Shown in pieces: positions 43,944 to 62,786 of a stretch of DNA of 64,000 nt (position 1 is its first letter; every line of letters begins with the position of its first letter). A program made the position numbers and the translations under genes. Source of the DNA: Thermodesulfobacteriota bacterium (GTDB lineage Bacteria > Desulfobacterota > Desulfomonilia > UBA1062); assembly GCA_036825155.1 (NCBI GenBank), contig DAISYU010000001.1:17770-81769 (forward strand). The letters are read 5' to 3'. The notes under the pieces are model-generated. The model saw only the letters and a program-made list of their open reading frames with translations. It was not told the DNA's origin and did not search any database.

Positions 43944-46604
43944 GTGGAGCATTTCAGGATGTATATCGGGGGGGAGTTTGTAGATTCCGTAACGGGCAGG
44001 ACCAGAGAATCCATTGATCCAGGGACCGGGATACCTTTTGCCACTGTCGCATACGGTGATGTGTCGGATGCCGAGGCAGCCATCGATGAGGCGCGCAGGT
44101 CCTTTGACTCGGGGGTATGGAGCGGCCTTGACCAGGAAGAGCGCTCCAGGGTAATCATGGATTTCTCAGACCGGCTGACGAAATATATCGTGAAGATAGC
44201 CTCATACGAATCCATGGACTCGGGAGGTATAATCAACAGGACCGGGGCCGAGGTGATGGGGGCATCCATGACGGCGAGGAACCTGGCCTGGTACGCCGCA
44301 CATGATTTCAAATGGCACGAGGAGGTCCGCGTCCCTGCATCACTGGCAAGCCCGGGGAGAAATTACATACGCAGGGAACCGGTCGGGGTGTGCGCAGGTA
44401 TTATCCCCTGGAACTTTCCCTTCGGCATGGCCATGTGGAAGATACTCCATGCCATTACCATGGGTAATTCCATAGTCTTGAAACCCGCCTCCGATACCCC
44501 TGTCAGTGCACTCATTATTGCCGAGGTGATCGCCGAGAGCAAGATCCCAAAGGGAGTGGTGAACATCGTAACAGGATCAGGAACCGAGGTCGGCGAAGCT
44601 CTTTGCAGGAGTGAAAAGGTCGACAAGATCGCCTTTACCGGCAGCACCGAGGTGGGGAAAAACATCATGAAAATGGGTGCGGACACCATCAAGAAGGTTA
44701 CGCTGGAGCTCGGTGGTAAATCTGCAAATATCATCCTCCCGGATGCCAACATGGAACTCGCCGTGGACGGCGGCCTGTTCGGCACGTTCTTCCATTCAGG
44801 CCAGATCTGCGAATCAGGTACCAGAATACTCGTGCACGAGAATATCTATGAAGAATATGTCGGACGCTTCATAGCAAAGGCTGCTGAGATAAGGATCGGA
44901 TACCAGCTCGATACCGCAACCCAGATGGGGCCCCTGGTCAGCGAAATACAGAGGGCAACTACTGAGAAGTATGTGAAGATCGGTCTCGAGGAAGGGGCCT
45001 GCCTCGCATACGGTGGGAAGAGGCCTGAGGGCGATCAATACGCATCCGGCTTTTATTACATGCCCACGGTTTTCACTGATGTTAACAACAGGATGCGCAT
45101 CGCCCGGGAAGAGATATTCGGCCCGGTGGTGTGTATCATGCCGTTCAAGGATGATGATGAGGCAGTGTCCATTGCCAATGATTCAATCTACGGACTTGCA
45201 GGCGGCGTATTCGGGAACGATATCGGGCGTGCCGAGAGGATTGCGCACAGGATAAAAACCGGGACCATGTGGATCAATGACTACCATTCCTTTGCCGACC
45301 TCATGCCTTTCGGCGGATACAAGCAGAGCGGCATCGGCAGAGAACTCGGCGGATACGGGCTATCGGAATATACGCAGATAAAACGTGTCCATGTGTGTCC
45401 TCATGCGGGTGGAGCCCAGAAGTATACGTTTCCCATCATGTTCGACTATCCTCAACCATCGGATTCATTCGCGTTTGAAGGTCCAACCAGGGTGATCTCA
45501 GGTCCTGACAGCATCATTGCGCTGCAGTATGAGATCAGCAAACTGAATTGCCGTCGTGCCGTTATCATCACGGACAAGGGGATACGTTCTGCAGGTCTTG
45601 TGGACAAGGTGAACAAGGCCCTGGGCAATCTCTGTATCGGGGTGTTTGACGAGGTGGTGGAGGATTCAGGCTACCTGGTGGTGGACAAGGCAGTAGCGTT
45701 CTGCAGAGACGTGGGTGCTGACATCCTCGTGAGCCTCGGAGGCGGGAGTTCCATCGACACAGCAAAGGCTGTGGCAGTAACCATTACAAACGGGGGGAAG
45801 GCTATAGACAACATCTCCATCTACAAACTCGTGGACCCGCTCATGCCGCATATTGCCATACCCACAACCGCCGGTACCGGGAGCGAGGTGAGCAATATCG
45901 CAGTTATCAAGAATGAAGAGATCGGCCGGAAATTCAACATTGCAGAGTTCCCCATCGCGCCGAATGTTGCCATACTCGATCCGCACATGACCGTTGGCCT
46001 TCCCAGGATGCTCACAGCGGCAACAGGAATGGATGCACTCTCCCATGCCATCGACGGAATGTGTTCGATCATGAGAAATCCTGTATGTACCGGCCATGGT
46101 CTGAATGCTATCCGGATGATCGCGAAATACCTGCCCGTTGCTGTGGAAGACGGTCATGACGTGCATGCGAGGATGCAGATGCAGATTGCCGCGGCAACTG
46201 CTGGATGGGCATTTTCCATTCCATCCACCATACTGACACATTCACTCGCCCACTGTATCGGGGCGAAGTACAAGATCCACCACGGTACCCTGTGCGGTCT
46301 TTTCCTGCCTCATGTCATGAGGTTCAATCGTGACTATTGTCTTGATGAGCTGGCAATGGTGGCCGAAGCCATGGGTGTTAATACAAGCACCATGTCAAAG
46401 ATCGATGCCGCAGCCTCATCAGCGGATGCGGTGGCTGATCTGGCAGACAGAATCGGGATTCCGGCCCGGTTGAGTGACCTGAACATAGCTGAGGCAGATC
46501 TTGACATGATCGCCCTGGATGCCATGACAGAGATCCCCACCCTCGCCAATCCACGCAAGTGCAGCCTGGAACTCATAGCAGAGGTTGTCCGGGGGGCATT
46601 TTGA
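43944..46604 (+). CDS. Fusion of NAD-dependent aldehyde dehydrogenase and iron-containing alcohol dehydrogenase
   Basis: ALDH: IPWNFP, FTGST, LELGGKS, GQICES, EEIFGPV, GGYKQSGIGRE. Fe-ADH: GGGSSID, PTTAGTGSE, DALSH, THSLAH, HHG. GTG start after GAGGAGG. Confidence 0.93.
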   Translation: MEHFRMYIGGEFVDSVTGRTRESIDPGTGIPFATVAYGDVSDAEAAIDEARRSFDSGVWSGLDQEERSRVIMDFSDRLTKYIVKIASYESMDSGGIINRTGAEVMGASMTARNLAWYAAHDFKWHEEVRVPASLASPGRNYIRREPVGVCAGIIPWNFPFGMAMWKILHAITMGNSIVLKPASDTPVSALIIAEVIAESKIPKGVVNIVTGSGTEVGEALCRSEKVDKIAFTGSTEVGKNIMKMGADTIKKVTLELGGKSANIILPDANMELAVDGGLFGTFFHSGQICESGTRILVHENIYEEYVGRFIAKAAEIRIGYQLDTATQMGPLVSEIQRATTEKYVKIGLEEGACLAYGGKRPEGDQYASGFYYMPTVFTDVNNRMRIAREEIFGPVVCIMPFKDDDEAVSIANDSIYGLAGGVFGNDIGRAERIAHRIKTGTMWINDYHSFADLMPFGGYKQSGIGRELGGYGLSEYTQIKRVHVCPHAGGAQKYTFPIMFDYPQPSDSFAFEGPTRVISGPDSIIALQYEISKLNCRRAVIITDKGIRSAGLVDKVNKALGNLCIGVFDEVVEDSGYLVVDKAVAFCRDVGADILVSLGGGSSIDTAKAVAVTITNGGKAIDNISIYKLVDPLMPHIAIPTTAGTGSEVSNIAVIKNEEIGRKFNIAEFPIAPNVAILDPHMTVGLPRMLTAATGMDALSHAIDGMCSIMRNPVCTGHGLNAIRMIAKYLPVAVEDGHDVHARMQMQIAAATAGWAFSIPSTILTHSLAHCIGAKYKIHHGTLCGLFLPHVMRFNRDYCLDELAMVAEAMGVNTSTMSKIDAAASSADAVADLADRIGIPARLSDLNIAEADLDMIALDAMTEIPTLANPRKCSLELIAEVVRGAF

Positions 46605-46782
46605 TCATCTCAGTGTTCTCACCCGGATCTGGACACGCTATAAAAAAGGGAGATCGCCCTGGGTGTCATATGAACGCGTAATGATATGCCTGCTGATGAC
46701 AAGCAAAGTTCAAGTATACATAAGTTCTTAAGAATATTTAGATATAGATGCGGAGTGTTTTAATAACTTTTCTGGAGGGAAG

Positions 46783-47829
46783 ATGTCTGAAAAACAGAGC
46801 AAGGTTATGAATGCGAAAGATGCCGTCAGCCGTTTCGTGCATGACGGTGATCATCTGGTTATCGGCAACTATACCGTCGGGACCTGCGCAGAGCTTGCAT
46901 TCGAGATCATCCGTCAGGGAATCAAAGGGCTTACCCTGTATTCCCAGTCAGGGGTTTTTGACGTGGAGGTCCTGGTGGGTGGCGGATGTGTGGACAGATT
47001 GGTTTCCACCTATGTGTATCGTGCAGGAGGGAAAGAAGGGGGTTCTGCGGTTGAGCGTGCAATCAAGGCAGGAACCCTGGAGATGGAGGACTACACGAAT
47101 TTCCAGTACAACGCCCGAATGGAGGCAGGCAAGCATGGGTTCAGCTTCATGCAGGTGCTGGAAGGACCCATGGTGACGGACCTGTTCAAGAAACGCACCT
47201 TTATGGGAGATGACAAGTACAGGGTGATCACGTGCCCGTATACGGGTAAGGATATTCTCACGGTTACGGCTGCAACGCCTGATGTATGTATCGTGCACGT
47301 CCAGCGGGCTGACAGGTTCGGCAACGCTCAGTACTGGGGCGCCCTGGGCAGCGTTGCAGCTGCAGCCCTGGCCAGCAAGCGGATTGTGATCTCGTGCGAG
47401 GAGATTGTGGAGCACGATGTGATCCAGTCCAGTCCCCACCTGACCATCATACCTGCGTATCGCGTCGATGCGGTCGTCGAGGTTCCCTGGGGTGCACATC
47501 CCACAGAGGTGCTCGGCTACTACAACCTGGACCGTCTCATGTATGCGATGTTCTTCATCTCGGACATGACCGGAGACGGACTGAAGGCATGGATGGATGA
47601 ATGGGTGTACGGATGCAGGAACCGGGAAGCCTACATCGATCATTACCTGGAGAAATTCGGCGCGGGAATGCTCAATGACATCAGGGCAAAATCCTACTTT
47701 TCCGCACCGGCGAACTATGGATCGGCATTTACCTCCTGCTGGGACCTTGAAGACAAGGAACGAACCCTGGGTATTACCCTGGAAGAGATGGAGAAGATCC
47801 TGGAAGAAAGGGGGATGCTCTATGGCTAA
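46783..47829 (+). CDS. Two-subunit CoA transferase, alpha subunit (glutaconate CoA-transferase-like)
   Basis: VHDGD, PDVCIVHVQRADRFGNA, VVEVPWGAHP; GGAGG RBS. Confidence 0.88.
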   Translation: MSEKQSKVMNAKDAVSRFVHDGDHLVIGNYTVGTCAELAFEIIRQGIKGLTLYSQSGVFDVEVLVGGGCVDRLVSTYVYRAGGKEGGSAVERAIKAGTLEMEDYTNFQYNARMEAGKHGFSFMQVLEGPMVTDLFKKRTFMGDDKYRVITCPYTGKDILTVTAATPDVCIVHVQRADRFGNAQYWGALGSVAAAALASKRIVISCEEIVEHDVIQSSPHLTIIPAYRVDAVVEVPWGAHPTEVLGYYNLDRLMYAMFFISDMTGDGLKAWMDEWVYGCRNREAYIDHYLEKFGAGMLNDIRAKSYFSAPANYGSAFTSCWDLEDKERTLGITLEEMEKILEERGMLYG

Positions 47830-48646
47830 GAAATACACGCTTGATGAACTGCTGATTATCACCGCTGCACGGGAGATCCATGATTACGAGAACATTATCC
47901 TGGGAGTAGGGCTGCCAACCACTGCAGGGGCACTGGCCAAGGCCATTCACGCACCGCATGCAACACTCATGATGGAATCGGGTATCATAGACTTCGAGCC
48001 GCTGGTTCCACCGAATCATATTGCCGATGCCCATTCATGCAGGGGATTTTCCTATGCCACCGATCTGTTTTCAGCCTTTACCATGACCTACAGGGGATTT
48101 GTGGATGTATGTTTCCTCGGTGTGGCTCAGATTGACAAGTACGGCAACATAAACACCACGGCGATCGGCGACTACTACAAGCCGAAGCTGAGGCTGACGG
48201 GCTCCGGCGGGGCGGCTGATTTCATCTCCTACGCAAGGCGAACCATCCTGACCATGCGTGGTGGGGAATTCGTGGACAAGCTGGACTATTTCACCTCACC
48301 GGGTTACCTCGACGGCGGGGACAGCAGGGAGAGGGCCGGCCTCTTTCCCCCCGGGTCCGGGCCGTCCATGCTGCTGACCACAAAAGGGGTGTTTCGTTTT
48401 GATGAGCAGACAAAGGAGATGTATCTTGCCAGGACACATCCGGGAATGAGTATAGATGACATCAGAAAGGATATCCCCTGGGAGTTGAAGATTGCAGACG
48501 ATGTCTCCACCACTGACAGGCCTACAGATGAGGAGATTACCTTTATCAGGCGGTTCGCTCCCACCGAAGTGGTGGGAAGAAAGCTGATGTTCGAACTCGG
48601 GCTGGCCAATGCCGCCAGGAAAGCCCAGGAAAAGAATAACGGATAG
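47822..48646 (+). CDS. Two-subunit CoA transferase, beta subunit
   Basis: Start MAKKYTLDEL at ATG 47822 overlapping the alpha stop; catalytic-type MESG, LGVAQIDKYGNINTT, GSGGA, FTSPG. Confidence 0.9.
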   Translation: MAKKYTLDELLIITAAREIHDYENIILGVGLPTTAGALAKAIHAPHATLMMESGIIDFEPLVPPNHIADAHSCRGFSYATDLFSAFTMTYRGFVDVCFLGVAQIDKYGNINTTAIGDYYKPKLRLTGSGGAADFISYARRTILTMRGGEFVDKLDYFTSPGYLDGGDSRERAGLFPPGSGPSMLLTTKGVFRFDEQTKEMYLARTHPGMSIDDIRKDIPWELKIADDVSTTDRPTDEEITFIRRFAPTEVVGRKLMFELGLANAARKAQEKNNG

Positions 48647-48958: not shown

Positions 48959-50020
48959 ATGACGGATATATATGAGCAATTGCGCAGGCGCCTCGATGAA
49001 ATGGCCACGGGATATCCCGCGACCGAAAGCGGTGTGGAGATCAGGCTGCTGAAACAGCTGTTCCGTCCGGAAGATGCCCGGATGTTCCTCTCAATGAGTA
49101 CATACGCACAGACTGCCCGTGAAATTGCGGAGAGGACAGGGACAGATACGGACACCACTGCAGCAGTGCTTGAGGATATGGCGCTTCGAGGGCTTGTATT
49201 CAGAGAACGCACAGAGGGGATGAGCTACTACCGGGCGATCCCTTTTATTGTCGGGATCTATGAGTTTCAGATCAATGCCCTCGATGGGACGATGCTCAAG
49301 AACGTTTCCGAGTACTATCTGTCGGGATTGGGTCAGTCGTTCCACTCCCTGAAGACCCCGCACCTGCGCACGATCCCTATCAACAGGGACCTGGTGTCGA
49401 AGTGGCCTGTTGCAACCTATGACGATGCAGTCTCGATTATTGAGAGAAAAGACCGCATTGCCGTGGCCCCGTGTCTCTGCCGCAAGGCGGTCCGTATGTA
49501 CTCTAAAGGCTGTGACCACCCACTGGAGACCTGTCTTCAGTTTGATACGTTCGCGGATTACTATGTGGACAACTCCATGGCACGCTACATTACCAAGGAT
49601 GAGGCTCGTGCCATCCTTGCCCGCAGCGAGAAAGAGGGCCTGGTTATCCAGACTGCGAATTCCAAAGAGGTGGAGGCCATGTGTTCCTGCTGTTCCTGCT
49701 GCTGCGGCATGCTTATCTCGCTCAAGCTGTTCCCTGCGCCGGCCCGCGAAGTGAAGAGCAACTATGTCTGCACCTCGAATGAAGGTTCGTGCACCCTCTG
49801 CGGTATGTGCGTCAAGCGCTGCCCCGTTGATGCCGTTGAACTTCTTGAAGAACATGCACATACCCATGAAGAACGCTGCATAGGGTGCGGGCTGTGCGTG
49901 AGCACCTGTCCTGCCGAAGCACGAACCCTTACAAGGAAGCCTGAAGAGAAGATCTATACCCCTGCGGATACGTTTTTCGACACCTTTGAACAGATGTGCG
50001 AGGAGCGCGGCAGGGATTAA
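48959..50020 (+). CDS. 4Fe-4S binding protein with N-terminal winged-helix-like region
   Basis: PCLCRK, CSCCSCCC, and two CxxCxxCxxxCP motifs at the C-terminus; 353 aa. Confidence 0.88.
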   Translation: MTDIYEQLRRRLDEMATGYPATESGVEIRLLKQLFRPEDARMFLSMSTYAQTAREIAERTGTDTDTTAAVLEDMALRGLVFRERTEGMSYYRAIPFIVGIYEFQINALDGTMLKNVSEYYLSGLGQSFHSLKTPHLRTIPINRDLVSKWPVATYDDAVSIIERKDRIAVAPCLCRKAVRMYSKGCDHPLETCLQFDTFADYYVDNSMARYITKDEARAILARSEKEGLVIQTANSKEVEAMCSCCSCCCGMLISLKLFPAPAREVKSNYVCTSNEGSCTLCGMCVKRCPVDAVELLEEHAHTHEERCIGCGLCVSTCPAEARTLTRKPEEKIYTPADTFFDTFEQMCEERGRD

Positions 50021-52695: not shown

Positions 52696-54030
52696 TCAGC
52701 CGGCCAGCACGGCGTCTACTGCATGTGCGAGCTTCTCCTTCGCGGCTGCGATGACATCAGCATCGGACCAGAGAAAGGCCAGCAGGTCCTCTGCCCGGAT
52801 ATGCGCAAAACACAGCAGCAGGATCGGGCAGATTCCGAGCGTCATGGCCAGGGCCGTCTTCTTCTCCCAGGTGTCATATTCATCCGCTGAGCCTGTGGGC
52901 ACAATGCGAGGTATGCCGGATCCGAACATGCGGTAGAACTCAAGTGAGACAGCTCCGGTATCTGAGCTGTTCGCAGTATCCACTGAAGCTGAATGGTTCG
53001 AGGCAAAGAGATCTATGTGCGAGCAGGCTTCCTCGGTAGGAGTGGTCTGGTCCAGCCCTGCAGCTGCGGCAGACGGGTCGATCCCGTTTTCGATACAGTG
53101 TTTCAGCAGCACAACGGCATCAGCCGGGCGCTTCTTTGACAATGCGGCGAATCCTTCATGGTCCAGCAGGAAGACCCCCTGTTTCTTTCCTGCTTTAAAA
53201 AGACTGTGCGAACCAGCCTGAGGGAACTCGAGATAACTCATGCAGGGAAACGGACAATGGTAGCATGCATGGGCCTTCTTGAAATGTTTCTTGATCAGTT
53301 GAGAAGCGGCCTCGCCGGAACCCATGCTTTTCTGCACCACAAACCGGGGGGTGCTGTACTGGTTCTTCAGTGCCGAAGCCATGGGGCCGCTCATTTCTAT
53401 GGCGTGTTCAGGGAAGCGGATCCCTCCGGCAGCCTTCAATGCAATGGCCCGTATATTCTTCTGCCCGACCGCGCAGCCCAGAGAAGCCTTGTCCAGACTG
53501 CCCCAGAGCCCGGTGGAGAGGCAGGCATGTGCAGAGGAGTTATCCGCGGCATTGCCCGTGAGCAGGACGATCTCGGGACAGTTCCTGCCTCGGGCCAGCA
53601 GCAAGTCTTCCCGCTTGGAAAGATCTCCTGCGAGGGTATCGCCTGGAGTGATCCTGATGGTATTGTCTATCAGCTCGATGATCACGGGGGTCTCGCTGCG
53701 GCCTGTGATCACAAGGAAATCAATCCCCGAGAATTTCAGCTGTGGCCCCGTATTGAGCATGAAGGGGACATGCATCACCTTGTTCCCGTTCGAGTAAAAG
53801 CTTGCCGTCATCAGGCACGATGCCGGGGCAAAACTTCCGGTGAGAGGTCCGGTGCCGAATACCAGAGGGGCGTTGTCTGCATAGCGTTCGAGGAGCACGG
53901 TGCTGAGGCGGACCCCTCCTGTATGCTCGGCGAAGAGTTCAGAGGGAAGATCTATGGTCTCCACTGATGAATTCTCGAGATTCACCAGCGCCATCTTTGC
54001 ATTATAAAAAGGGGTCATGAGTACGTCCAT
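52696..54030 (-). CDS. Degenerate aldehyde:ferredoxin oxidoreductase (AOR) family paralogue
   Basis: AOR N-domain traits (LVFGTGPLTG, GPQLKFSGIDFLVITG, KNIRAI), ACYHCPFPC and LGIC; lacks EYET and DPR. Start at ATG 54030 or coupled ATG 54018. Confidence 0.8.
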   Translation of the reverse strand: MDVLMTPFYNAKMALVNLENSSVETIDLPSELFAEHTGGVRLSTVLLERYADNAPLVFGTGPLTGSFAPASCLMTASFYSNGNKVMHVPFMLNTGPQLKFSGIDFLVITGRSETPVIIELIDNTIRITPGDTLAGDLSKREDLLLARGRNCPEIVLLTGNAADNSSAHACLSTGLWGSLDKASLGCAVGQKNIRAIALKAAGGIRFPEHAIEMSGPMASALKNQYSTPRFVVQKSMGSGEAASQLIKKHFKKAHACYHCPFPCMSYLEFPQAGSHSLFKAGKKQGVFLLDHEGFAALSKKRPADAVVLLKHCIENGIDPSAAAAGLDQTTPTEEACSHIDLFASNHSASVDTANSSDTGAVSLEFYRMFGSGIPRIVPTGSADEYDTWEKKTALAMTLGICPILLLCFAHIRAEDLLAFLWSDADVIAAAKEKLAHAVDAVLAG

Positions 54031-55313
54031 GCTTTGACTTCTCCTGGAATGGTTTTCTGCCAGCGAAAGCGGATCTTTGCGGAGCTGTACGGGCAGGTGT
54101 CCACACAACGCATACACAAGATACACTCGTCCATGGGGATCTTGGGCGCGGTCCCCTCTCTGAGGGCTTCACGGTCGATGATGCCCATGGGGCAGATGTC
54201 GGCGCACTGCATACAGGAAAACTTCTTGCACTGCTTGGCCCCGATCACGATCTTGATCAGGCCTATCTTGGCCGCCAGAGCCAGTACGGCACCCACCGGA
54301 CAGAAGTAGCGGCACCATGACCTGCGCTGTCCCAGTTCAAGGCTTGCGATGGCAGGCACAATGGCAAGTTCTGCTCCCTGCAGCACCCCCGATACCCCGT
54401 ACGACCTGCAGATGCTTCCGATGGGGCATACCGTGCAGAAGGGCTGGAATCCCAGGCCGGCAGCCCCGCCGATCGCTCCGCCAAGGATCCCGTACTTGAT
54501 CATGCGGCTTTTCAGAAATTTCGGCAGGCCGAACTTGGGGACGACAGAGCCCACCAGGTCGAGGAAGAACCCGAAGGGACATACCCATCCGCAGAAGGCC
54601 CTGCCAAGAAGGATAGTCAGTACGATGAGCACGAGGGCAGCACCGGCGCTGGCGAACACGATATGCTTGGTTGCGGCGATATTCTGCAGGGTCCCGGTGG
54701 GACAGGGCAGAGAGACCACCCCTGCCGTGAAATAACAGAACGTGCCCACGAGGACCACCACCAGGAGCAGGAATGAGAGCAGCTGTACCGGCCAGCGCAG
54801 ATATTTGATCCATCCTACGGCCTTACCCCGATAGAAGTGCAGTGCCCCTTCAGGACAATGTTTGACGCACAGGGGGTCACCCTCGCACAGGTCGCATTTT
54901 CTGATCTTGCCGGTCACCGGTTCCACCATCGGGGCCGATTCAGGACAGGCAAGGGTGCAGATCCCGCATTCCACACAGAACAGGCGCCTGATGCGCACGA
55001 TTCCTTCATCGTCCTTGTCGATCGCGCGGGTAGGGCAGGCTTCCAGGCAGAGGGGTTCTCTGCAGTGCAGACACAGGGCCGCAAAGTTCTTGCCTTCCTC
55101 TTCGTTGCGCAGGACCTTTATGCTTGACGACGCCGGCGCCACTTTGTCCACATTCCGGTTGGAACAGACCATCTCGCAGGTCGAACACCCGGTACATTTT
55201 GAGGGATTGAATACAATGACCGGCGGATGTCTGGGCAGTTTCTTCTTGGCAGGCAACGGTCTTAAGTCCTTGATATCTATATATTCAACTTGTTTCTGGG
55301 CAGCTTCGGGCAT
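54015..55313 (-). CDS. Fusion of a 4x[4Fe-4S] ferredoxin (DmsB/CooF-like) and a NapH/MauN-like membrane polyferredoxin
   Basis: CTGCSTCEMVC, CLHCREPLCLEACP, CVECGICTLACP, CDLCEGDPLCVKHCP; then TM helices with CGWVCPFG, CTVCPIG, CRYFCPVG, and two C-terminal clusters. Confidence 0.88.
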   Translation of the reverse strand: MPEAAQKQVEYIDIKDLRPLPAKKKLPRHPPVIVFNPSKCTGCSTCEMVCSNRNVDKVAPASSSIKVLRNEEEGKNFAALCLHCREPLCLEACPTRAIDKDDEGIVRIRRLFCVECGICTLACPESAPMVEPVTGKIRKCDLCEGDPLCVKHCPEGALHFYRGKAVGWIKYLRWPVQLLSFLLLVVVLVGTFCYFTAGVVSLPCPTGTLQNIAATKHIVFASAGAALVLIVLTILLGRAFCGWVCPFGFFLDLVGSVVPKFGLPKFLKSRMIKYGILGGAIGGAAGLGFQPFCTVCPIGSICRSYGVSGVLQGAELAIVPAIASLELGQRRSWCRYFCPVGAVLALAAKIGLIKIVIGAKQCKKFSCMQCADICPMGIIDREALREGTAPKIPMDECILCMRCVDTCPYSSAKIRFRWQKTIPGEVKAWTYS

Positions 55314-55330: not shown

Positions 55331-55786
55331 TTACGCATTCCTCAGCAGATATACTTTACGCCTGCAGGCGGGACACATTTCAAGGTATCCCTTGGGTTCA
55401 TCCTTGAGTCGCTCGGTGATAAAGTCCATGACGTGCAGTGCAGCGAAGAGTTCACCGCAGCAGGTGCAGGTGCGGATATCCTTGACCGTTCCCTGCTGGA
55501 TGGCCAGTTGTCTGAGTCCTTTTATGAGATCGCGGTCACTCACCCCTGCAGGGCATACGTCGGTGCCGGCATTGCACTCGGTGCAGTACCAGATGTATTC
55601 GTCGGCAAGGATATCCTCTCCCATCATGACCTTCTTGATCACCCCGCGCGGTGACATCTCGATGGAAAAATTCGGGTACATCTCTGCCATGGGGCACACT
55701 GCCACGCAGCGGCCGCACTCCACACAGCTGTGCGCACCGGAGGCAGTCATGATATCTCTAATCTCTTTTGCACTCTTCATCTTCAT
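55331..55786 (-). CDS. HdrC-like 4Fe-4S protein with C-terminal CxxC...CxxC
   Basis: CVECGRCVAVCP, CTECNAGTDVCP, CTCC...CPAC; ATG 55786 overlaps the fdhA stop (ATGA). Confidence 0.85.
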   Translation of the reverse strand: MKMKSAKEIRDIMTASGAHSCVECGRCVAVCPMAEMYPNFSIEMSPRGVIKKVMMGEDILADEYIWYCTECNAGTDVCPAGVSDRDLIKGLRQLAIQQGTVKDIRTCTCCGELFAALHVMDFITERLKDEPKGYLEMCPACRRKVYLLRNA

Positions 55787-57813
55787 TCCTTCTCCATACG
55801 AGCAGCACATGCCTTGAATTCCGGTATCTTCGAGATCGGATCGAGTTCCTCGATGGTCAGTGCGTTGGCCGGTGCCTCTCTGAAGTGGAACGGTGCAAAG
55901 ATCGACCCTTTCCTGACCCGGGAGGTGATCTTCGCATTCGTGCTGATGGATCCCCTGCGTGTACTCACCCTGATGGCGTCACCGTCTCTGATACCCAATG
56001 AATGTGCATCCGCAGGACTGATCTCCACAAAGGGCTTGTCCACCTCTCGGTGAAGGAAATGCGATCGCCTGGTCATTGTGCCGGTATGATAGTGAGAGAA
56101 CATACGGCCGGTAATGAGCGTATACGGATACGTTTCGTCTGGCATTTCTTTGGGCGGCGTATAGCCCGGGACAACAAAGAGTCCCTTTCCGCGTGAGAAT
56201 CTGCCTTCATGGAGAAAGCGGGTACCGGGATGTGTGTCTTCCGGACAGGGCCATTGCAGACCGGCGCTTCCCAGTCTGTCGAAATGCACACCACCCATAA
56301 TCGGGGTGAGTGACGCGACCTCATCCATTACCTCGCCGGGGTCGGCATATGGGTAATCAAGTCCCAGCGCCTTTCCCATCATGCACAGGATGGTGAAGTC
56401 GTCCCTGGCGTCTCCCGGTGGTTCGACGGCCTTGCGGAGCAGCTGGATCCTCCGCTCGGTATTGGTAAAGGTGCCGGTCTTCTCCGCGTAACATGCACCC
56501 GGCAGCACCAGGTCGGCGAGTTTGGCGGTCTCGGTCAGGAAGATATCCTGCACGATCAGGAAATCGAGTTTGTGCAGGGAGTCGATCACATGACTCTGGT
56601 TCGGATCGGACAAAACAGGATTCTCCGCCATAATGTACAGTGCGCGGATCTTCTTTCCGGCCGAGCCAATGATCTCCGTGACAGTCATGCCGGGGGTAGG
56701 TGAGAGTTCCCTGCCCCAGGCATCCTCGAACTTCCTGAGGATATTCGCATCGGCAACGGTCTGGTACCCGGGGTAGACATTGGGAAGCGCCCCGAGGTCG
56801 CACGCCCCCTGCACATTGTTCTGCCCCCTCAAGGGGCAGATACCCGAGTGCGGTTTGCCGACATGTCCGCACAGCATGGCAAGATTGCATATGGCAAATA
56901 CGTTGGCAGTGCCGCAGGCATGCTGGGTGATTCCCATACAGAATACAATGGATGCTTCCTGCGCGCGGGAATATATCTCTGAAACCCGCGCGATCTCTTC
57001 GGCTGCAATCCCTGATTCATCACTGGCCTCCTCGACGCTCCACCCTGAAAGGTATGCATCCAGCGCATCAAAGGCCTCGGTCCTCTCATTGATGAAATCA
57101 CGAGCCTCCAGGCCCTGGTCGAGAATGTACCGCATCATGCCGTTTATCAGCGGGATGTCGGTGCCGGAGTTGATCTGGAGATGGATGTCGGCGTTGGCAG
57201 CCACCTCGGTTCTCCTGGGATCCACCACGATCAGTGTCGCCCCGTGATCTTTGGCCTTGTAGATCTCGCCCATGATGATGGGGTGGGTTTCCGCAGCGTT
57301 GGAACCGAAGATGATGATACACTCAGCCCCGGTGAAATCGCTGATGGAGTTTGTCATGGCACCGCTGCCCAGGGCCTGCGCCATGGCAGCTGCCGTGGGA
57401 CCGTGACAGAGCCGTGCACAGTGGTCGACATTGTTGGTCTTGAACCCGGCTCTGATCAGTTTCTGGAACAGGTAATTCTCCTCATTGGTGCACTTTGCGG
57501 AGCTCAGTCCGGCAACGGCGTCCGGACCGTAGCTCTCGGCTGCTTCCTTGAGCTTCTTCGCAGCGAGATCGATTGCCTCCTCCCACGATATTTCCTGAAA
57601 CTCTCCGTTCTTCTTGAGCAGGGGCCGGGTGAGCCTGTCCGGATGATGGATAAATTCGTGGGCTGCCCAGCCTTTGATGCACAAGGTACCTTTGGCTACG
57701 GGATGTTTCCTGTCAGGCAGGGTCCTGATGGCCTTGCCGTCTTCAACCTGCAGGATAAACCCGCACCCGGTGCCGCAATAAGGACAGATCGTCTTTACAA
57801 AATCACGTTTCAT
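55783..57813 (-). CDS. fdhA: Cytoplasmic formate dehydrogenase alpha subunit (FdhF-type, Cys-ligated Mo/W-bis-PGD)
   Basis: TICPYCGTGC, SSAKCTNEENY, HCARLCHGPT (Cys, not Sec), PLRGQNNVQGACD, HYHTGTMTRR; no Tat signal. Confidence 0.95.
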   Translation of the reverse strand: MKRDFVKTICPYCGTGCGFILQVEDGKAIRTLPDRKHPVAKGTLCIKGWAAHEFIHHPDRLTRPLLKKNGEFQEISWEEAIDLAAKKLKEAAESYGPDAVAGLSSAKCTNEENYLFQKLIRAGFKTNNVDHCARLCHGPTAAAMAQALGSGAMTNSISDFTGAECIIIFGSNAAETHPIIMGEIYKAKDHGATLIVVDPRRTEVAANADIHLQINSGTDIPLINGMMRYILDQGLEARDFINERTEAFDALDAYLSGWSVEEASDESGIAAEEIARVSEIYSRAQEASIVFCMGITQHACGTANVFAICNLAMLCGHVGKPHSGICPLRGQNNVQGACDLGALPNVYPGYQTVADANILRKFEDAWGRELSPTPGMTVTEIIGSAGKKIRALYIMAENPVLSDPNQSHVIDSLHKLDFLIVQDIFLTETAKLADLVLPGACYAEKTGTFTNTERRIQLLRKAVEPPGDARDDFTILCMMGKALGLDYPYADPGEVMDEVASLTPIMGGVHFDRLGSAGLQWPCPEDTHPGTRFLHEGRFSRGKGLFVVPGYTPPKEMPDETYPYTLITGRMFSHYHTGTMTRRSHFLHREVDKPFVEISPADAHSLGIRDGDAIRVSTRRGSISTNAKITSRVRKGSIFAPFHFREAPANALTIEELDPISKIPEFKACAARMEKE

Positions 57814-58657
57814 GGTTCACCTTCAATGAATCCAGCCACCCGGGCTCCATGAGGGGCGGGCACGGCTCGATAGTCAGATCGCTGAGCACCGGAGAGAGCC
57901 GCTCCAAATCTGTTCCGGCTTCATATCCGTAATTGTTTGCCAGGGTTTCACGCATGGCAACCTGCAGAAGCATCAGGGGAATATTGACCGGGCAGGCATC
58001 CGTACATCCGCCGCAGGCAACGCACGTATCAGACAGGTGAAATGCCCTGATAAGGTGGTAGGACACCATATCCGCAGGGATCTCGCCGCGTCTGACCCAC
58101 AGATCGTCTTCCAGTTTACAGGGTTCACATACACAGATCGGACACGAATTTCTGCATCCGTAGCATTTGATACACCTGCTGAGTTCGGCCGCCCAGTGCT
58201 GCATCCGTGTGCCTGGATCGTCCGAAAGAAACATTCTTGCCCGTTCATCTTCGCGGGGATCAAATCCCTCTGACTTCTCACCCAGGGCGATCGAGGCAGG
58301 GTAGGGTTTTGTACACAGGCATATTCGAGCCTGCTCGGCACTGCAGGCCAGTCCTATGACATGCAGGCGTGCAGGGTCGAACTGGTTGCGCTTGGAAAGT
58401 TCATTCAAGGCCCGTTCATCACAGCCCCGGCAGATGATGCCCAGCCGGTAGTCTTGTGGGGACGAGCGCAGGATGTTCATGGCCAGCTTGGCAAGCAGCC
58501 ATTTGGGCTCAAGTTCCAGCATACCGGTCTCCGCGGCAACCTCGAAGACATACGGATAGGGTTCGTCTTCCACCCGTGCCAGAGCCAGCACCCCGTCAAC
58601 CAGGCCTTCTTCGAGTGCGTTTTTGGCCTTGAGCCGTGCATCTTCTACTAGACTCAC
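57803..58657 (-). CDS. FdhB/FlxC-like 4Fe-4S subunit
   Basis: CRGCDERA, IGLAC, CIKCYGCRNSCP, CVACGGCTDACP; GTGA-coupled to mvhD. Confidence 0.85.
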   Translation of the reverse strand: MSLVEDARLKAKNALEEGLVDGVLALARVEDEPYPYVFEVAAETGMLELEPKWLLAKLAMNILRSSPQDYRLGIICRGCDERALNELSKRNQFDPARLHVIGLACSAEQARICLCTKPYPASIALGEKSEGFDPREDERARMFLSDDPGTRMQHWAAELSRCIKCYGCRNSCPICVCEPCKLEDDLWVRRGEIPADMVSYHLIRAFHLSDTCVACGGCTDACPVNIPLMLLQVAMRETLANNYGYEAGTDLERLSPVLSDLTIEPCPPLMEPGWLDSLKVNHET

Positions 58658-59142
58658 GTATCACCTCTTCTGTAATCGTTCATATTTGACCGTGACCATG
58701 CCTGAACCGGCGGCAGATCCTGAAGCCTGCGATAAAACTCCCCGATGACATCTGCAAACTGATGGTGTTCATGGGCGGTGCCGAAGCTGGTGAAGAGGCG
58801 TCGGGAATCAATCCCCACCGTATCCAGCAGCGGTCTCAAGAGTTCAAGCCTTTTGGCTGCACGGTGGTTGGCGTTATTGTAGCGGCAGCCGCCCAGGTGG
58901 CAGCCCATCACCGCTACACCGTCTATTCCCGAGGAAAAAGCCCTGATGACCGCGTCAGCCTCGACACGTGAGGCACATTCCACCGGGATGACCCGGAAAT
59001 TCACGGGAAGCTGTACCTTGTTCTTTCCTGCCGCATCTGCACCGATAAGCGCGCACCACTTACAGGCAAATACCACTACCTTTGGTGCTGCGTTGTGTCG
59101 GGTGCTCTCGGCATGATCACTCAGCAGTATCTCTTGTGTCAT
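58654..59142 (-). CDS. mvhD: MvhD/FlxD-like [2Fe-2S] subunit
   Basis: FACKWC...GADAAG, VECASRV, GCHLGGCRY. Confidence 0.92.
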   Translation of the reverse strand: MTQEILLSDHAESTRHNAAPKVVVFACKWCALIGADAAGKNKVQLPVNFRVIPVECASRVEADAVIRAFSSGIDGVAVMGCHLGGCRYNNANHRAAKRLELLRPLLDTVGIDSRRLFTSFGTAHEHHQFADVIGEFYRRLQDLPPVQAWSRSNMNDYRRGDT

Positions 59143-59155
59143 AGCGCACCTTCTC

Positions 59156-60862
59156 TCAACTAAAAGCAGCTTTCAGCATCTCTCCGATGAGGAGAGCGTT
59201 TTGTTCCGGCAGCTGGATCGAACCGTTGGGACAGACCGAAACGCAGCTCCCGCAACCGGTACAGCGCATCTGACTGACTGTGCTCTTGTATGCTCCCTGA
59301 TCCGCCTCCAGGCTGCAGGCATCATAGGGGCAGATGGCCACGCAGTTTCCGCACCCGGTACATGCCTGCCGGTCCACCAGGGCCAGGGAAAATTTACGTT
59401 CCTTAAACTGGCTGATTTGTGTGGCCGTGAGCTGATCAGTGTTCAGCAGGGCAAAGGCCTTCATTGCGGCCGCTTCACCCTGCAGGATCGCTGTGCGGGC
59501 CAGCACCGGCCACCTGGCGGACCCGCAGACCAGCACACCGTCTTTGGTAGTCTCCAGGGGATGCATCAGAGAGCGCACCTCGTAGAAACCATGTATATCA
59601 CGATTGAGGTCGAACAGTTCAGCCACTCTGGCGGCATCGTCATGCGGGATCAGCGGAGAGCTGAGCACCACCAGTTCGGCATCAATTCGCCGTTCTCTGC
59701 CGGTGATGACATCATAAACCCTGATTTCCTCCACCTGTTCGGCGCCGAGGATCCCCGGGGGTGTGTCCTGATCGTACCGGACGAACCGGACGCCCGCCTC
59801 CATTGCCTTGCGGTAATAGTCCTCCAGAACACTGCCGGGGCACATGATATCCCGGTGGAGTATCGTCACCTCAGCATCCGGGTTTTCCTCCAGGAGCTGT
59901 ATTGCCTGCTTCAGGGACACCGGGCAGCAGATAGCCGAACAGTACGGTCTGTCGGCATCACGTACGCCCACGCACTGGATGAAGACAGCGGAGGTGACCT
60001 TCATGCCGGGGCCCTTGAAACTCCGTTCGAGCTCGATGCCGGTGATAACCCCCTTGAGCTCCTTGTACCGGTATAACGATCCCGGCAGGTTGACCCGTGC
60101 ACCGGTTGCTATGATGACCGCCCCGACATTGATGCTCTTGACATCACTACCGGATGTGAACTCGACGGTGAAATCGCCTGCAGACCCTCGCACAGCGGAA
60201 ATTCGACTGCCGGGATAGTAGCGAACCAGGGGGGAGTTGCCCACTGTGTACAGGAAAGCCTCCACATGTTGTGGGGTTCCGTCGGTTTCAGGGGCAATCT
60301 TCTTGATCAGGTTCAGCAGGCCACCCGGGGTCTTGGCCCGGTCCAGGAGGTGTACCGTAATCCCCAGCTTCACCAGGGAAGCGGCAGCGGAGATCCCTGC
60401 AGGTCCTGCCCCGATAACGAGCACTTCCTGCTTCGGTTCGATCGTCAGATCTTCAGAATAGTTACGCTGCACCAGTGCGGCGATACCCATATTTATGAGA
60501 TCACCGGCTTTTTTTGTGGCTGAGGCGGGGTCATCACGGTGTATCCAGGCACATCCCTCGCGGAGATCCACCAGTTCTATATGTTTCGGATCAATGCCTC
60601 TTTTCTGAAGCCCGGTGATTATCGCATCACCCCTGGCCAGGAAGGAACAGGCCCCCAGCAGAACCCTGGATTCCGGTGAAAGGGGGATGCGCTTGGCCAG
60701 CTCATCGATATTCTCTTCAAGACAGAGAGACTTTACCTTTTCACACGATACGATCCGGGGATGATGCTCGAGTCCCTTGCGGATTGATTCAAGATCGACA
60801 ACATCGGAGATCTCACCGTAACACTCGCAGAGAAAGCACCTGGTTTGTTTGTTGTCTTCCAC
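59156..60862 (-). CDS. HdrA-like FAD/Fe-S flavoprotein (QmoB-like architecture without fused MvhD)
   Basis: N-terminal HdrA domain (CFLCEC, GACS, LREGCAWIH), GAGPAG, FIQCVG...CSAICC, two C-terminal clusters; GTG start overlaps the upstream TAG. Confidence 0.9.
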   Translation of the reverse strand: MEDNKQTRCFLCECYGEISDVVDLESIRKGLEHHPRIVSCEKVKSLCLEENIDELAKRIPLSPESRVLLGACSFLARGDAIITGLQKRGIDPKHIELVDLREGCAWIHRDDPASATKKAGDLINMGIAALVQRNYSEDLTIEPKQEVLVIGAGPAGISAAASLVKLGITVHLLDRAKTPGGLLNLIKKIAPETDGTPQHVEAFLYTVGNSPLVRYYPGSRISAVRGSAGDFTVEFTSGSDVKSINVGAVIIATGARVNLPGSLYRYKELKGVITGIELERSFKGPGMKVTSAVFIQCVGVRDADRPYCSAICCPVSLKQAIQLLEENPDAEVTILHRDIMCPGSVLEDYYRKAMEAGVRFVRYDQDTPPGILGAEQVEEIRVYDVITGRERRIDAELVVLSSPLIPHDDAARVAELFDLNRDIHGFYEVRSLMHPLETTKDGVLVCGSARWPVLARTAILQGEAAAMKAFALLNTDQLTATQISQFKERKFSLALVDRQACTGCGNCVAICPYDACSLEADQGAYKSTVSQMRCTGCGSCVSVCPNGSIQLPEQNALLIGEMLKAAFS

Positions 60863-62085
60863 TATTGTTCCTCCCCCACATGCACCCGAAGCGCAGCCGA
60901 TGATGCCTGGACAACAGATGCCTCGACATCCATTGGTTCACGGCAGAATCCGCAGGACTTTATAGTTGGACTGATACCGCTGAGCAGCCCCTCGGTATCG
61001 AGTATGGGACTGTACCCGGAGTCCTTTGATTTTGCCAGGGACGGCTGCAGTGCCCCGTTGAGCACCACCATGTCGAACTTCCTGATCTGCCGTGACTGGG
61101 TTATGGTATTCTCATATTTTACGGCGATCCCGTCTTCGTCAGGCATGGGATAAATAAGTCCCGGTCTTCCCCTGAGGAGCTCAATGGACGAACCGCCTAT
61201 CTCCCTTAGATAGTACTCATAGTAGTGTCTGCCCTCGGCACGCATGTCAGTGAAGAAGATGACGCATTGCACCTGCGGATTGCGCCGCTTTACCCACTGG
61301 GCCTGTTTGAGGGCATGCATGCAGCAGACCGCCGAACAGTAGGGAAAGAGTCTCAGGTCCCTGGCTCCGGCGCATTGGATGAATGCGATGCTTGCAGGCT
61401 GCTTGTTGTCTTGCTTTTTAACAACGGTTCCCCGGTTGAGGCCGGACTCGGCAGTCCATTCTTCGAACTGCAGGGAACTCATGATATCGGGATGGGTCCC
61501 GTAGCCGTATTCCTCGAGGGGTGAGATGTCGTAGTCCTGAAATCCGGTGGCCCAGATCACGTCCCGGGCAAGGATCTCGCTTGAAGCGGCTTTTCTGTTA
61601 ATATCAATGGCGGAGGTGGGACATACATCCACACACTTACCACAGAGGGTACATTTTTCTCTATAAATATAGTATGATGGCGGGTATGCATGTGCACCCA
61701 GGGTGCTGATGGCATCGACGCCGCATGCGGGCACACACCTTCCACATGAGATACACCGGTTCTCGTCGATATACCGGGGGTGTTCATCCACGACCACCTT
61801 CAAGGCCCCGTCGGTCTTGGTGATGGTGTTGATCTCGGCGCAGGTATGTACGGTGATCAGAGGGTTCAGCATACAGTTGCGTACTTCGGTCCAGAGAGGA
61901 CAGAAGGCACAGTGATCCGTGGGATAGAGCTTGTCAAGGGCTGATACCTGTCCACCCAGGGCAGGGCCTTTCTCCACCAGATGCACGGCGGTCCCTGCTC
62001 TTGCCAGATCAAGGGATGCCGTGATCCCGGCGACTCCACCGCCGATGACAATGACTGGTTTCATGTGAGGGGGCTTGGCAGACAT
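60862..62085 (-). CDS. HdrA-like FAD/Fe-S flavoprotein (short form with inserted ferredoxin domain)
   Basis: GGGVAG, LDKLYPTDHCAFCP, two inserted CxxCxxCxxxC, FIQCAG...CSAVCC; 407 aa. Confidence 0.9.
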   Translation of the reverse strand: MSAKPPHMKPVIVIGGGVAGITASLDLARAGTAVHLVEKGPALGGQVSALDKLYPTDHCAFCPLWTEVRNCMLNPLITVHTCAEINTITKTDGALKVVVDEHPRYIDENRCISCGRCVPACGVDAISTLGAHAYPPSYYIYREKCTLCGKCVDVCPTSAIDINRKAASSEILARDVIWATGFQDYDISPLEEYGYGTHPDIMSSLQFEEWTAESGLNRGTVVKKQDNKQPASIAFIQCAGARDLRLFPYCSAVCCMHALKQAQWVKRRNPQVQCVIFFTDMRAEGRHYYEYYLREIGGSSIELLRGRPGLIYPMPDEDGIAVKYENTITQSRQIRKFDMVVLNGALQPSLAKSKDSGYSPILDTEGLLSGISPTIKSCGFCREPMDVEASVVQASSAALRVHVGEEQ

Positions 62086-62096
62086 GGGTGCTCCTC

Positions 62097-62786
62097 TTAC
62101 TTATTGATCAGGCCATAGTGACTGGCCAGCTTCCTGATCCTGCTTCCCAGCCACTCCCCGAAACTCGGCGGCGGGAAATCATAGGGGCCGACATTATCCT
62201 CTTGTTTAAGAGCAAGGATCTTTTCGGAAGGTTGAAAGCGTTTGACCTTGTCGTAATATACCACGATCGATTTTGGATCGGTGGGGCAGCGGGTAAAACA
62301 TGCGCCGCAGCCGATGCACTTGTCCTCGATGACTACGGGATTCTTCCGGTCCTCCAGTTCAATAGCGTCATACTTGCATGCCTTGTAGCAGTTACGGCAA
62401 CGACGCTTGTTGGTCCAGGCGAGACAGGTGTCCCGGTTGATGACCGCGTTGCCGATGTCAAGGTCCTCTTTGGCAACCTTCTTGATCGCACCGGTGGGGC
62501 AGGTCCTGATGCATTCCATGCACAGGATGCACTTGCGCCAGTCCAGTACAGGGGTGCCGAGATTGGGGATGCCGTCAAAGATCGAGGCCGGAGACAGAGC
62601 GTCTGCAGGGCAGACGTCAATGCAGCGGTAGCAGCGGGTACAGTGTTTGAGGAACTCCGCTTCCACGAGTGAAGCAGGAGGCCGGGGCAGCGCCTTTGCC
62701 CCGCTGACCTTGAACACGGTAAAGACCGCACCAGAGGCCACGCCACTGATCAGAATTTTCATAAAGTTCCTGCGCGAGTTCTCCAT
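62097..62786 (-). CDS. NapG/MauM-like ferredoxin with twin-arginine signal
   Basis: SRRNFMK, LPRPPAS...EFLKHCTRCYRC, four Cys clusters. Confidence 0.85.
   Translation of the reverse strand: MENSRRNFMKILISGVASGAVFTVFKVSGAKALPRPPASLVEAEFLKHCTRCYRCIDVCPADALSPASIFDGIPNLGTPVLDWRKCILCMECIRTCPTGAIKKVAKEDLDIGNAVINRDTCLAWTNKRRCRNCYKACKYDAIELEDRKNPVVIEDKCIGCGACFTRCPTDPKSIVVYYDKVKRFQPSEKILALKQEDNVGPYDFPPPSFGEWLGSRIRKLASHYGLINK

Follow-up and report, generated by a model that had tools for sequence, protein, structure and literature searches.

Every member of the aldehyde:ferredoxin oxidoreductase (AOR/WOR) family known so far carries a tungsten or molybdenum bis-metallopterin, as set out in a 2025 review (PMC12096430). 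Around the cofactor of Pyrococcus furiosus AOR (PfAOR, PDB entry 1AOR), Thr243, Glu313, Tyr427 and His448 form a second shell that is conserved in most aldehyde-oxidising members, and the carbonyls of Asn93 and Ala183 coordinate a Mg2+ ion (PMC12096430, PMC13328260). NapH, a protein of quinol oxidation, has four transmembrane (TM) helices, two cytoplasmic Fe-S clusters and cytoplasmic termini (PMC9012536). Here we describe AOR', a short protein resembling the AOR large subunit WorL, which is encoded next to a fusion of a WorS-type polyferredoxin with a NapH-type membrane domain in a 64,000-nt stretch of contig DAISYU010000001.1 from a Thermodesulfobacteriota bacterium (hereafter the window). 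We lean towards the view that AOR' is a WorL relic without a pterin, which serves as a scaffold, and possibly as an electron donor, for the WorS-type domain in a membrane quinol module of the NapH type.

AOR' is a short AOR-family protein with an incomplete C-terminal half

Residue numbers are those of AOR' unless marked PfAOR, and positions are those of the window. The gene, its cluster motifs and its domains, the latter delimited by secondary structure, are as follows.

52696..54030, minus strand: AOR', short AOR/WorL-like protein, an uninterrupted 444-codon open reading frame (ORF)
53265-53242, minus strand: CYHCPFPC (C256/C259/C263), equivalent to the [4Fe-4S] ligands PfAOR Cys288/291/295 (CYACPIGC in 1AOR)
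52828..52842, minus strand: TLGIC (Thr397-Cys401); C401 (nt 52830-52828) corresponds to PfAOR Cys494 and completes the set of four cluster ligands
Residues 1-207: domain 1, complete, as in PfAOR
Residues ~208-345: domain 2, trimmed to ~138 residues (PfAOR, 207 residues)
Residues ~360-444: domain 3, a stub of ~85 residues (PfAOR, 188 residues)

The start codon is the ATG at 54030, and the sequence AGGAG lies at 54045-54041, 10 nt before it. A previous, sequence-only reading of this DNA had described a gene of about 440 codons, shorter than a typical AOR and with an intact frame. This description holds, as the 444-aa frame is open throughout and the protein is ~160 aa shorter than real AORs, with a C-terminal half of ~236 aa as against ~395 aa. 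The N-terminal domain AFOR_N (PF02730/IPR013983) was matched at residues 12-199 (E 3.1e-27, 96 bits against the Pfam cut-off of 29.8). The C-terminal domain AFOR_C (PF01314/IPR001203), sought in Pfam at E <= 10, reached 13.5-15.2 bits, below its cut-off of 27, and its remnant spans profile positions 57-129 of 385 only. The best NCBIfam match of the N-domain is the YdhV-type model PRK09849 (1.1e-18, 67 bits against a cut-off of 868). Relatives of AOR' are named 'AOR N-terminal domain-containing protein' or 'hypothetical' at NCBI and 'aldehyde:ferredoxin oxidoreductase' at JGI.

The AlphaFold2 model of AOR', made with the family alignment, has a pLDDT of 92.3 and a pTM of 0.93. When it was compared with the PDB by Foldseek, AOR-family chains were the sole significant matches and aligned over the whole length, with query TM-scores (TMq) of 0.60-0.72. 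The top matches included 9G7J (E 4e-21, TMq 0.72), 9MQX (0.71), 1AOR (0.68) and BamB (0.62), and the next match had an E value of 0.1. The earlier description of the gene as an AOR paralogue is thus sound as regards the predicted fold and the N-domain; it does not extend to a recent tandem duplication of the intact AOR that is encoded in the same operon, which we reject because the AOR' N-domain scores higher against generic, unrelated AORs. Judged by these scores, AOR' is an old separate lineage.

The cluster ligands are kept whereas most of the cofactor site is lost

Residue equivalences were taken from the family profile aligned to 1AOR and from hhalign comparisons with ten true AORs; the latter cover residues 1-274 only, the C-terminal 170 residues being unaligned by profile methods. 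It can be seen from an alignment of 119 family members that C256, C259, C263 and C401 are invariant, so that both Fe-S motifs which had been read from the DNA as kept, the CxxCxxxC and the distal Cys, are indeed present. CxxCxxxC and G.CP occur together in 176 of 190 short homologues. Altogether 17 columns are invariant across the 119 members, which are 30-99% identical, and these include C256, C259, C263, C401-P402 and G61-P-L-T-G65. The invariant Cys ligands fit a retained [4Fe-4S] cluster. Cys337 (C312, conserved in ordinary AORs too), Lys103 (K99), Asp108 (D104) and the KNLK motif (KN(L/I)K) are also kept.

Around the cofactor, PfAOR Arg76 falls on L73 or C72, a position at which no family member has a basic residue. 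The conserved SPLTG and SGG loops around PfAOR Asn93 are replaced by variable sequence and by H87-V-P89-F-M, and a segment of ~30 residues that holds PfAOR Thr243 is deleted. PfAOR Glu311-Tyr312-Glu313 fall on a variable Lys-rich loop at about residues 277-283; EYET is gone, as had been claimed, although the claimed replacement by LLDHEG was out of register, since LLDHEG aligns ~7 residues past the EYET position, with PfAOR Leu318-Gly323. PfAOR Asp338 is replaced by Ile313, which is hydrophobic family-wide (Ile/Leu). The Gly-rich segment had been called eroded, and we agree: GRGGVGAVMGSKNLK has become DKASLGCAVGQKNIR, so that the glycines are lost and the basic residue is kept (Arg182 is replaced by Lys181), and GRGGVG, with its Gly residues, has given way to D-K-A-(G/S)-L-(A/G) across the family. 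The DPR and GDH motifs, likewise listed as lost, belong to a region around GGDH (His448) that is mostly deleted, the spacing from GIDP to LGIC being ~80 aa as against ~150 aa in PfAOR. No conserved His or Tyr equivalent to PfAOR His448 and Tyr427 was found in the shortened domain-3 region, a negative result that is the weaker for resting on an absent alignment, and PfAOR Asp489, the pterin-binding Asp of DxxGLC, appears to be replaced by Met396.

A second shell of Thr243, Glu313, Tyr427 and His448 is accordingly not recognisable in AOR'. Of the residues which we take to be the anchors of the pterins and their phosphates (Arg76, Arg182, Asp338 and Asp489, after the 1995 PfAOR structure of Chan et al.) and of the Gly-rich loops, only Arg182, in the form of Lys181, and the Gly-x-Asp of the first pterin motif are retained. 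We conclude that, on the residues and the predicted model, a bis-pterin site in AOR' is very unlikely.

AOR' is coupled to a WorS-type polyferredoxin/NapH fusion

The gene directly upstream of AOR' encodes the following protein.

54015..55313, minus strand: WorS/AorA-type four-cluster polyferredoxin (~residues 30-170) fused to a NapH-type membrane domain, 432 aa

The start of AOR' overlaps the TGA (54017-54015) of this ORF by 16 nt in the window, and the stop of the fusion and the start of AOR' overlap by 4 nt (ATGA) in 45 of 53 loci, which bears out the earlier observation that AOR' is coupled to a ferredoxin fusion. The best PDB matches of the N-terminal 170 residues are AorA (8C0Z_C, 3e-30), WOR5-S (2e-21), 9mqx_E (1e-20), which is the WorS of the bifurcating AOR 9MQX, and BamC (4e-9); the AOR' locus therefore has the adjacent WorS/AorA-type polyferredoxin gene that marks the WorL-WorS module of Class II-V WORs. 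This is the only WorS-type domain in the operon, the ferredoxin beside the intact AOR being of another type. The NapH half matched the NCBIfam model NF007013 (3.5e-33, 115 bits against an equivalog cut-off of 234). It has four TM helices (182-200, 218-236, 240-258 and 340-358), two CX3CP motifs (C241GWVCP and C334RYFCP) and C-terminal [4Fe-4S] motifs at 367 and 397. The four-TM NapH domain also gives the fusion a feature by which Class V WORs are recognised, a WorS with a twin-arginine (Tat) signal and/or a TM domain; a Tat motif is absent from the fusion sequence. As the fusion is without a Tat motif and the termini of NapH face the cytoplasm (PMC9012536), the WorS domain is expected to be cytoplasmic.

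From the WorS-type neighbour and the conserved start/stop overlap we propose that the direct partner of AOR' is the WorS-NapH fusion, and the conserved coupling fits a 1:1 assembly of the two proteins. The heterodimer of AOR' with the intact AOR that was suggested previously is not borne out, the likely partner being the fusion that lies directly upstream and is coupled to AOR'.

AOR' belongs to a conserved family under purifying selection

Among 5.8 billion proteins there were 152 matches to AOR'. The best 120 of the 152 are nearly all full-length (408-475 aa, with one fragment of 343 aa), are 31-99% identical and carry PF02730 alone. A HMMER scan of 1.84 billion representatives at 50% identity gave 45 clusters at E <= 1e-30, and ~95 short clusters (380-500 aa) outranked the first ordinary AORs of 600 aa. 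In one-genome-per-species data the family was found in ~60 metagenome-assembled genomes (MAGs), nearly all labelled Syntrophales, Syntrophaceae or 'Deltaproteobacteria' and a few Desulfovibrionaceae or Desulfobacterales; none of the ~60 is an isolate. In three Desulfobacterales/Desulfovibrionaceae MAGs (loci L037, L066 and L071) the same gene set is present with FdhA relocated directly after AOR', which there shares no more than 24-33% identity with the protein of the window.

The ratio of non-synonymous to synonymous substitution rates (dN/dS, omega) was obtained for the window against three orthologues at 90, 83 and 77% identity, a range that is unsaturated (dS 0.23-0.70). For AOR' it is 0.21-0.25, and it is even across domain 1 and what remains of domain 2 and of domain 3; the four genes align gap-free, with no frameshifts or stops. 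AOR' is clearly under purifying selection, so that the relaxed selection or frameshifts that the sequence-only reading had named in advance as fatal to its case were not encountered. Its omega is nevertheless the highest of the operon (NapH fusion 0.05-0.07, FdhA 0.055-0.08, intact AOR 0.10, HdrA 0.13-0.18), and its long-range identity is the lowest, at 31-47%, where the remaining genes of the operon reach 45-89% in those loci. The highest omega together with the lowest identity fits a protein freed of catalytic constraints.

A distant short AOR-like protein (locus L058, 9624..11329, plus strand) is without all four Fe-S Cys, having CYNTPYAT for CxxCxxxC and IFGIHP for LGxCP, and is still preceded by an overlapping gene for a reduced BamC/WorS-type ferredoxin of 126 aa. 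That this subfamily keeps its ferredoxin neighbour despite the loss of the Cys residues suggests that scaffolding, independent of a cluster, is the more basic role. Genes for acetate kinase and multihaem cytochromes, as well as glycine-reductase-like genes, surround this locus.

AOR' is the last gene of a ten-gene operon

In ~30 loci with enough upstream DNA, ten genes occur in identical order: intact AOR, NapG-like ferredoxin, HdrA-like protein, HdrA, MvhD, Fe-S protein, FdhA, HdrC-like protein, WorS-NapH fusion and AOR'. The eight upstream of the fusion are as follows in the window.

62901..>64000, minus strand: intact AOR/WorL, WOR5-like; AFOR_C 5.9e-100, best PDB match WOR5 (7e-49)
62097..62786, minus strand: NapG-like four-cluster polyferredoxin, 229 aa; NF007012 (NapG) 6.8e-26, below cut-off
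60862..62085, minus strand: second, shorter HdrA-like (QmoA-like) FAD/Fe-S protein, 407 aa; NCBIfam HdrA2 1.1e-88
59156..60862, minus strand: HdrA-like flavoprotein (HdrA), 568 aa; NCBIfam HdrA2 4.5e-94, also matched in Pfam
58654..59142, minus strand: MvhD/FlpD-like protein; Pfam FlpD 2.3e-38
57803..58657, minus strand: Fe-S protein of 284 aa with two CX2CX2CX3C motifs; no NCBIfam match, operon position conserved
55783..57813, minus strand: FdhA, formate dehydrogenase alpha subunit (Mo/W-bisPGD), Cys-type; TIGR01591 830 bits against a cut-off of 666, Pfam Molybdopterin domains
55331..55810, minus strand: HdrC-like 2x[4Fe-4S] protein; NCBIfam HdrC 1.6e-16, QmoC 7e-9

The intact AOR runs past the right end of the window, and its C-terminal 365 aa alone are visible. 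The comparison of AOR' with it in the sequence-only reading was a real one, with the motifs as quoted, but it could draw on this visible part only. It has the motifs CNHCPVHC, EYET, DPRG, GGDHH and LTMC, and its orthologues are 603-607 aa long. With its HdrA and MvhD genes the operon recalls a class II benzoyl-CoA reductase (BamB-I), but we rejected this reading, as the intact AOR is WOR5-like and not BamB-like, BamB is only a mid-ranking structural match of AOR' and BamGHI homologues are absent. The NapG-like protein has the twin-arginine signal SRRNFMK...AKA/LPRPP in the window, and a Tat-like N-terminus was seen in 32 of 34 orthologues. The intact AOR, which is signal-less, might be exported together with it in the manner of Class V WORs, or else only the NapG-like protein may lie on the periplasmic side, opposite the NapH domain.

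FdhA has Cys (NVDHCARLCHGPT) where E. coli FdhF has selenocysteine, and the 284-aa Fe-S protein encoded upstream of it is presumed to be an FdhB-like electron-transfer subunit. The true start of the HdrC-like protein is likely to lie near 55780, giving 149 aa, in line with orthologues of 149-153 aa. No operon protein matched the CCG domain of HdrB, so that an HdrABC is not complete here, and the NapH fusion and AOR' occupy the place after HdrC where HdrB would be expected. The name Hdr-Ifo (IfoAB) for this cluster was considered and rejected, as Hdr-Ifo denotes the Flox-Hdr cassette DVU2399-2404, which is unrelated to AOR'.

The surroundings downstream of AOR' contain the following genes.

51956-52603, minus strand: multi-TM protein of 215 aa, no Pfam match; follows AOR'
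50994-51959 and 50027-50971, minus strand: two tandem ThiF-family (PRK08223-like) proteins; Pfam ThiF
48959..50020, plus strand: protein of 353 aa with a MarR/TrmB-like winged helix, CSCCSCCCG and two [4Fe-4S] motifs, convergent with the ThiF genes
43944..48646, plus strand: bifunctional AdhE (886 aa, aldehyde and Fe-alcohol dehydrogenase), then two CoA-transferase subunits

The multi-TM and ThiF genes follow AOR' only in the three closest relatives (L086-L088) and stand inverted in L011; they are absent from ~40 other loci. They are probably a separate unit from the operon, and we rejected the ThiF genes as a functional link because, the inverted copy in L011 apart, their conservation does not reach past the nearest relatives. 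A small ORF of the ThiS/MoaD type was not seen. The ORM2 benzene 'Magic' cluster was dropped as a lead, being without AOR or ThiF content. The winged-helix protein may be a redox-sensing regulator. The AdhE and CoA-transferase genes represent aldehyde-linked metabolism near the AOR operon.

A proposed relic that would scaffold the polyferredoxin, and the alternatives to it

We propose that AOR' descends from the WorL large subunit of a tungsten aldehyde oxidoreductase and would have lost the W-bis-pyranopterin site while retaining the [4Fe-4S] cluster. It would dock on the WorS part of the fusion in the way that AorB does on AorA, or WorL on WorS, and its role would be structural, in that the four-cluster ferredoxin wire would be kept folded, stabilised and positioned on the cytoplasmic side of the membrane. 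The cluster of AOR' itself may be an off-pathway side branch, or else an electron entry or docking port through which the soluble HdrA/MvhD/HdrC/FdhA module passes electrons toward the NapH quinol site; the direction and role of electron flow through AOR' are our reconstruction. The sequence-only reading had offered a structural subunit, an electron relay or a cofactor chaperone as roles for a pseudo-enzyme, and the first two agree best with the present picture, whereas a chaperone fits poorly with cluster ligands and membrane coupling.

Several observations weigh against so complete a loss of the cofactor. PfAOR Arg182 is replaced conservatively, by K181, with K or R throughout the family, and the neighbouring Asp180 is invariant; Gly341-Leu-Asp343 of the first pterin motif survives as G316-I-D318; and the GPLTG motif is invariant in the family. 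Polar residues specific to the family, His87, Asp180 and Asp290-His291 (conserved at >=90%), map near the old cofactor site, where they might do more than fill a cavity and make up a new site for a ligand or metal. The assignments for His448, Lys450 and Asp489 rest on motif register only, because the C-terminal 170 residues are unalignable. Finally, that AOR' binds the WorS domain is most likely, but this is drawn from gene order and homology.

The scaffold reading can be taken further, and we do so tentatively. AOR' and the WorS-NapH protein may together be an adaptor that links a soluble flavin-based bifurcating or confurcating module to the membrane quinone pool, the whole operon then encoding a menaquinol-linked formate/aldehyde redox supercomplex. 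The module would comprise HdrA, the HdrA-like protein, MvhD, HdrC, FdhAB and the AOR with its Tat-exported NapG-like ferredoxin. With domains 2 and 3 shrunk, what had been a terminal catalytic subunit would have become a through-relay, and its exposed [4Fe-4S] cluster would exchange electrons with the Hdr module.

Foremost among the alternatives is that a remodelled pocket of AOR' continues to hold a pyranopterin (with W, with Mo or metal-free, perhaps a single one) and that AOR' is the catalytic subunit of a membrane-bound, Class V-like WOR acting on a substrate other than an aldehyde. Domain 1, the seat of the pterin in AORs, is of full length, and GPLTG, K99, D104 and KN(L/I)K are conserved; residue 181 is Lys or Arg in place of Arg182, and the first pterin motif retains its Gly-Leu-Asp part. 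BamB, moreover, is catalytic although it is without the aldehyde second-shell residues (PMC12096430), and TM helices in the partner WorS are the defining feature of Class V WORs (PMC13328260). However, Arg76 and Asp338 (apparently also Asp489, by motif register only) have become hydrophobic and the Gly-rich loops for the phosphates have gone; deletions have removed the segment with Thr243 and most of the DPR/GDH region, the His448 position is unalignable and domain 3 is reduced to ~85 aa. AOR' also evolves 2-4 times faster than the operon's catalytic subunits, and a related subfamily (that of L058) lacks even the Fe-S ligands. We consider a pterin-binding AOR' unlikely.

A further alternative starts from the missing HdrB. 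The operon has HdrA, an HdrA-like protein, MvhD and an HdrC-like protein and no CCG-domain HdrB, and AOR' and the NapH fusion are placed where HdrB would follow HdrC. A new active site built on the [4Fe-4S] cluster and His87, Asp180 and Asp290-His291, residues that are conserved at >=90% and foreign to the AOR family, might replace HdrB as the site of reduction of a high-potential substrate. But there is no additional conserved Cys or redox motif by the cluster, Cys312 being shared with ordinary AORs; the quinone reached through the NapH module is already an obvious high-potential acceptor; and the omega of AOR' is the highest in the operon. We regard this substitution for HdrB as improbable.

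To the idea that AOR' is a maturation factor or cofactor chaperone, holding tungstopterin or apo-enzyme for the intact AOR, we give very little credence. It is true that AOR and AOR' share one operon in ~30 loci, that ThiF-family genes adjoin AOR' in the window lineage and that a role in pterin synthesis has been suggested for thiF/worX genes located near WORs (PMC13328260), but the ThiF genes are missing from ~40 of 45 loci. The translational coupling, too, is to the membrane ferredoxin and not to an AOR eight genes away, and a chaperone would not be expected to have invariant Fe-S ligands or to have lost the pterin-anchoring residues.

A decaying or truncated AOR gene without function, for which the missing greater part of AFOR_C and the fastest evolution in the operon could be cited, is effectively refuted by an omega of 0.21-0.25 in all regions, gap-free orthologues without frameshifts or stops, >100 full-length homologues, 17 invariant columns in 119 sequences, a confident, compact predicted fold and the conserved position and overlap, in agreement with the earlier statement that the gene is not decaying. 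The probability that these readings leave over belongs to roles of other kinds.

Significance of the AOR' family

We found no description of the AOR' family or of the ten-gene operon in the literature, of which subscription journals were incompletely covered. Neither the 2025 review nor a 2026 census includes these proteins, and to the census they are invisible, because it requires both InterPro domains (PMC13328260). If cofactor loss is true, AOR' would be the first such relic subunit described for the tungsten AOR family, and it would open a way to learn how the polyferredoxin wires of WorS are held in place and connected. Metabolic reconstructions should not take AOR' genes, despite their JGI name, as a sign of aldehyde-oxidising capacity. 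Almost all members of a large group of uncultured Syntrophales have the ten-gene Hdr/Fdh/AOR/NapGH-like operon, and it bears on how membrane quinol is coupled to low-potential formate/aldehyde chemistry in syntrophic energy conservation; were the adaptor reading true, the supercomplex could run reverse electron transport in these organisms.

Comparison with known systems

The closest counterparts of AOR' are WorL and AorB of the W-containing AORs (1AOR, C. autoethanogenum 9G7J and A. aromaticum AorB, 8C0Z). It resembles them in its predicted fold (TMq <=0.72), in domain 1 (E 5e-27), in the four Cys ligands of the [4Fe-4S] cluster and in the position of its gene directly after that of a WorS/AorA-type polyferredoxin. 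It differs in being ~160 aa shorter, in a sub-threshold AFOR_C and in catalytic and pterin residues that are replaced, deleted or, in the case of Tyr427, unmapped.

The Class V WORs (E. coli YdhV/YdhY and C. somerae WOR41) likewise combine a WorL-type protein with a membrane-associated WorS, and a Tat polyferredoxin is encoded in the operon here. Their WorL, however, is full-length and binds Mo/W-bis-MPT. Measured against a Class V WorL (clade 41, YdhV-like, full length), AOR' falls short in length, and the evidence for the clade is the PRK09849 match only. The WorS described here also differs in being NapH-fused, Tat-less and, as predicted, cytoplasm-facing, with the Tat signal on the separate NapG-like protein beside the intact AOR.

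In the C-terminal half of the fusion, with its NapH hallmarks, and in the NapG-like Tat polyferredoxin, the operon resembles NapGH. Unlike in that system, NapAB and NapC are absent, NapH is fused to WorS and would be partnered with AOR', and the NapG and NapH matches lie below the NCBIfam equivalog cut-offs. The clustering of HdrA, MvhD, an HdrC-like protein and FdhA recalls the HdrA-MvhD-FdhAB clusters of Desulfobacterota, which are putative formate-linked bifurcating systems, and Hdr-Flox ('Hdr-Ifo'); these differ in that HdrB and the Flox/Ifo subunits are absent here and AOR, a NapGH-like module and AOR' are added.

Cofactor-less relics of Mo/W-bisPGD enzymes are the C-terminal domain of NuoG/Nqo3 in complex I, QrcB in the menaquinone reductase Qrc and ActB in alternative complex III. 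These belong to the unrelated DMSO reductase family, so that AOR' would share with them an evolutionary logic and no homology. By analogy, AOR' would be, as they are, a former pterin-containing catalytic subunit kept as a structural or Fe-S subunit of a membrane-linked complex, and this theme of the 'fossil catalytic subunit' would then extend to the tungsten AOR superfamily.

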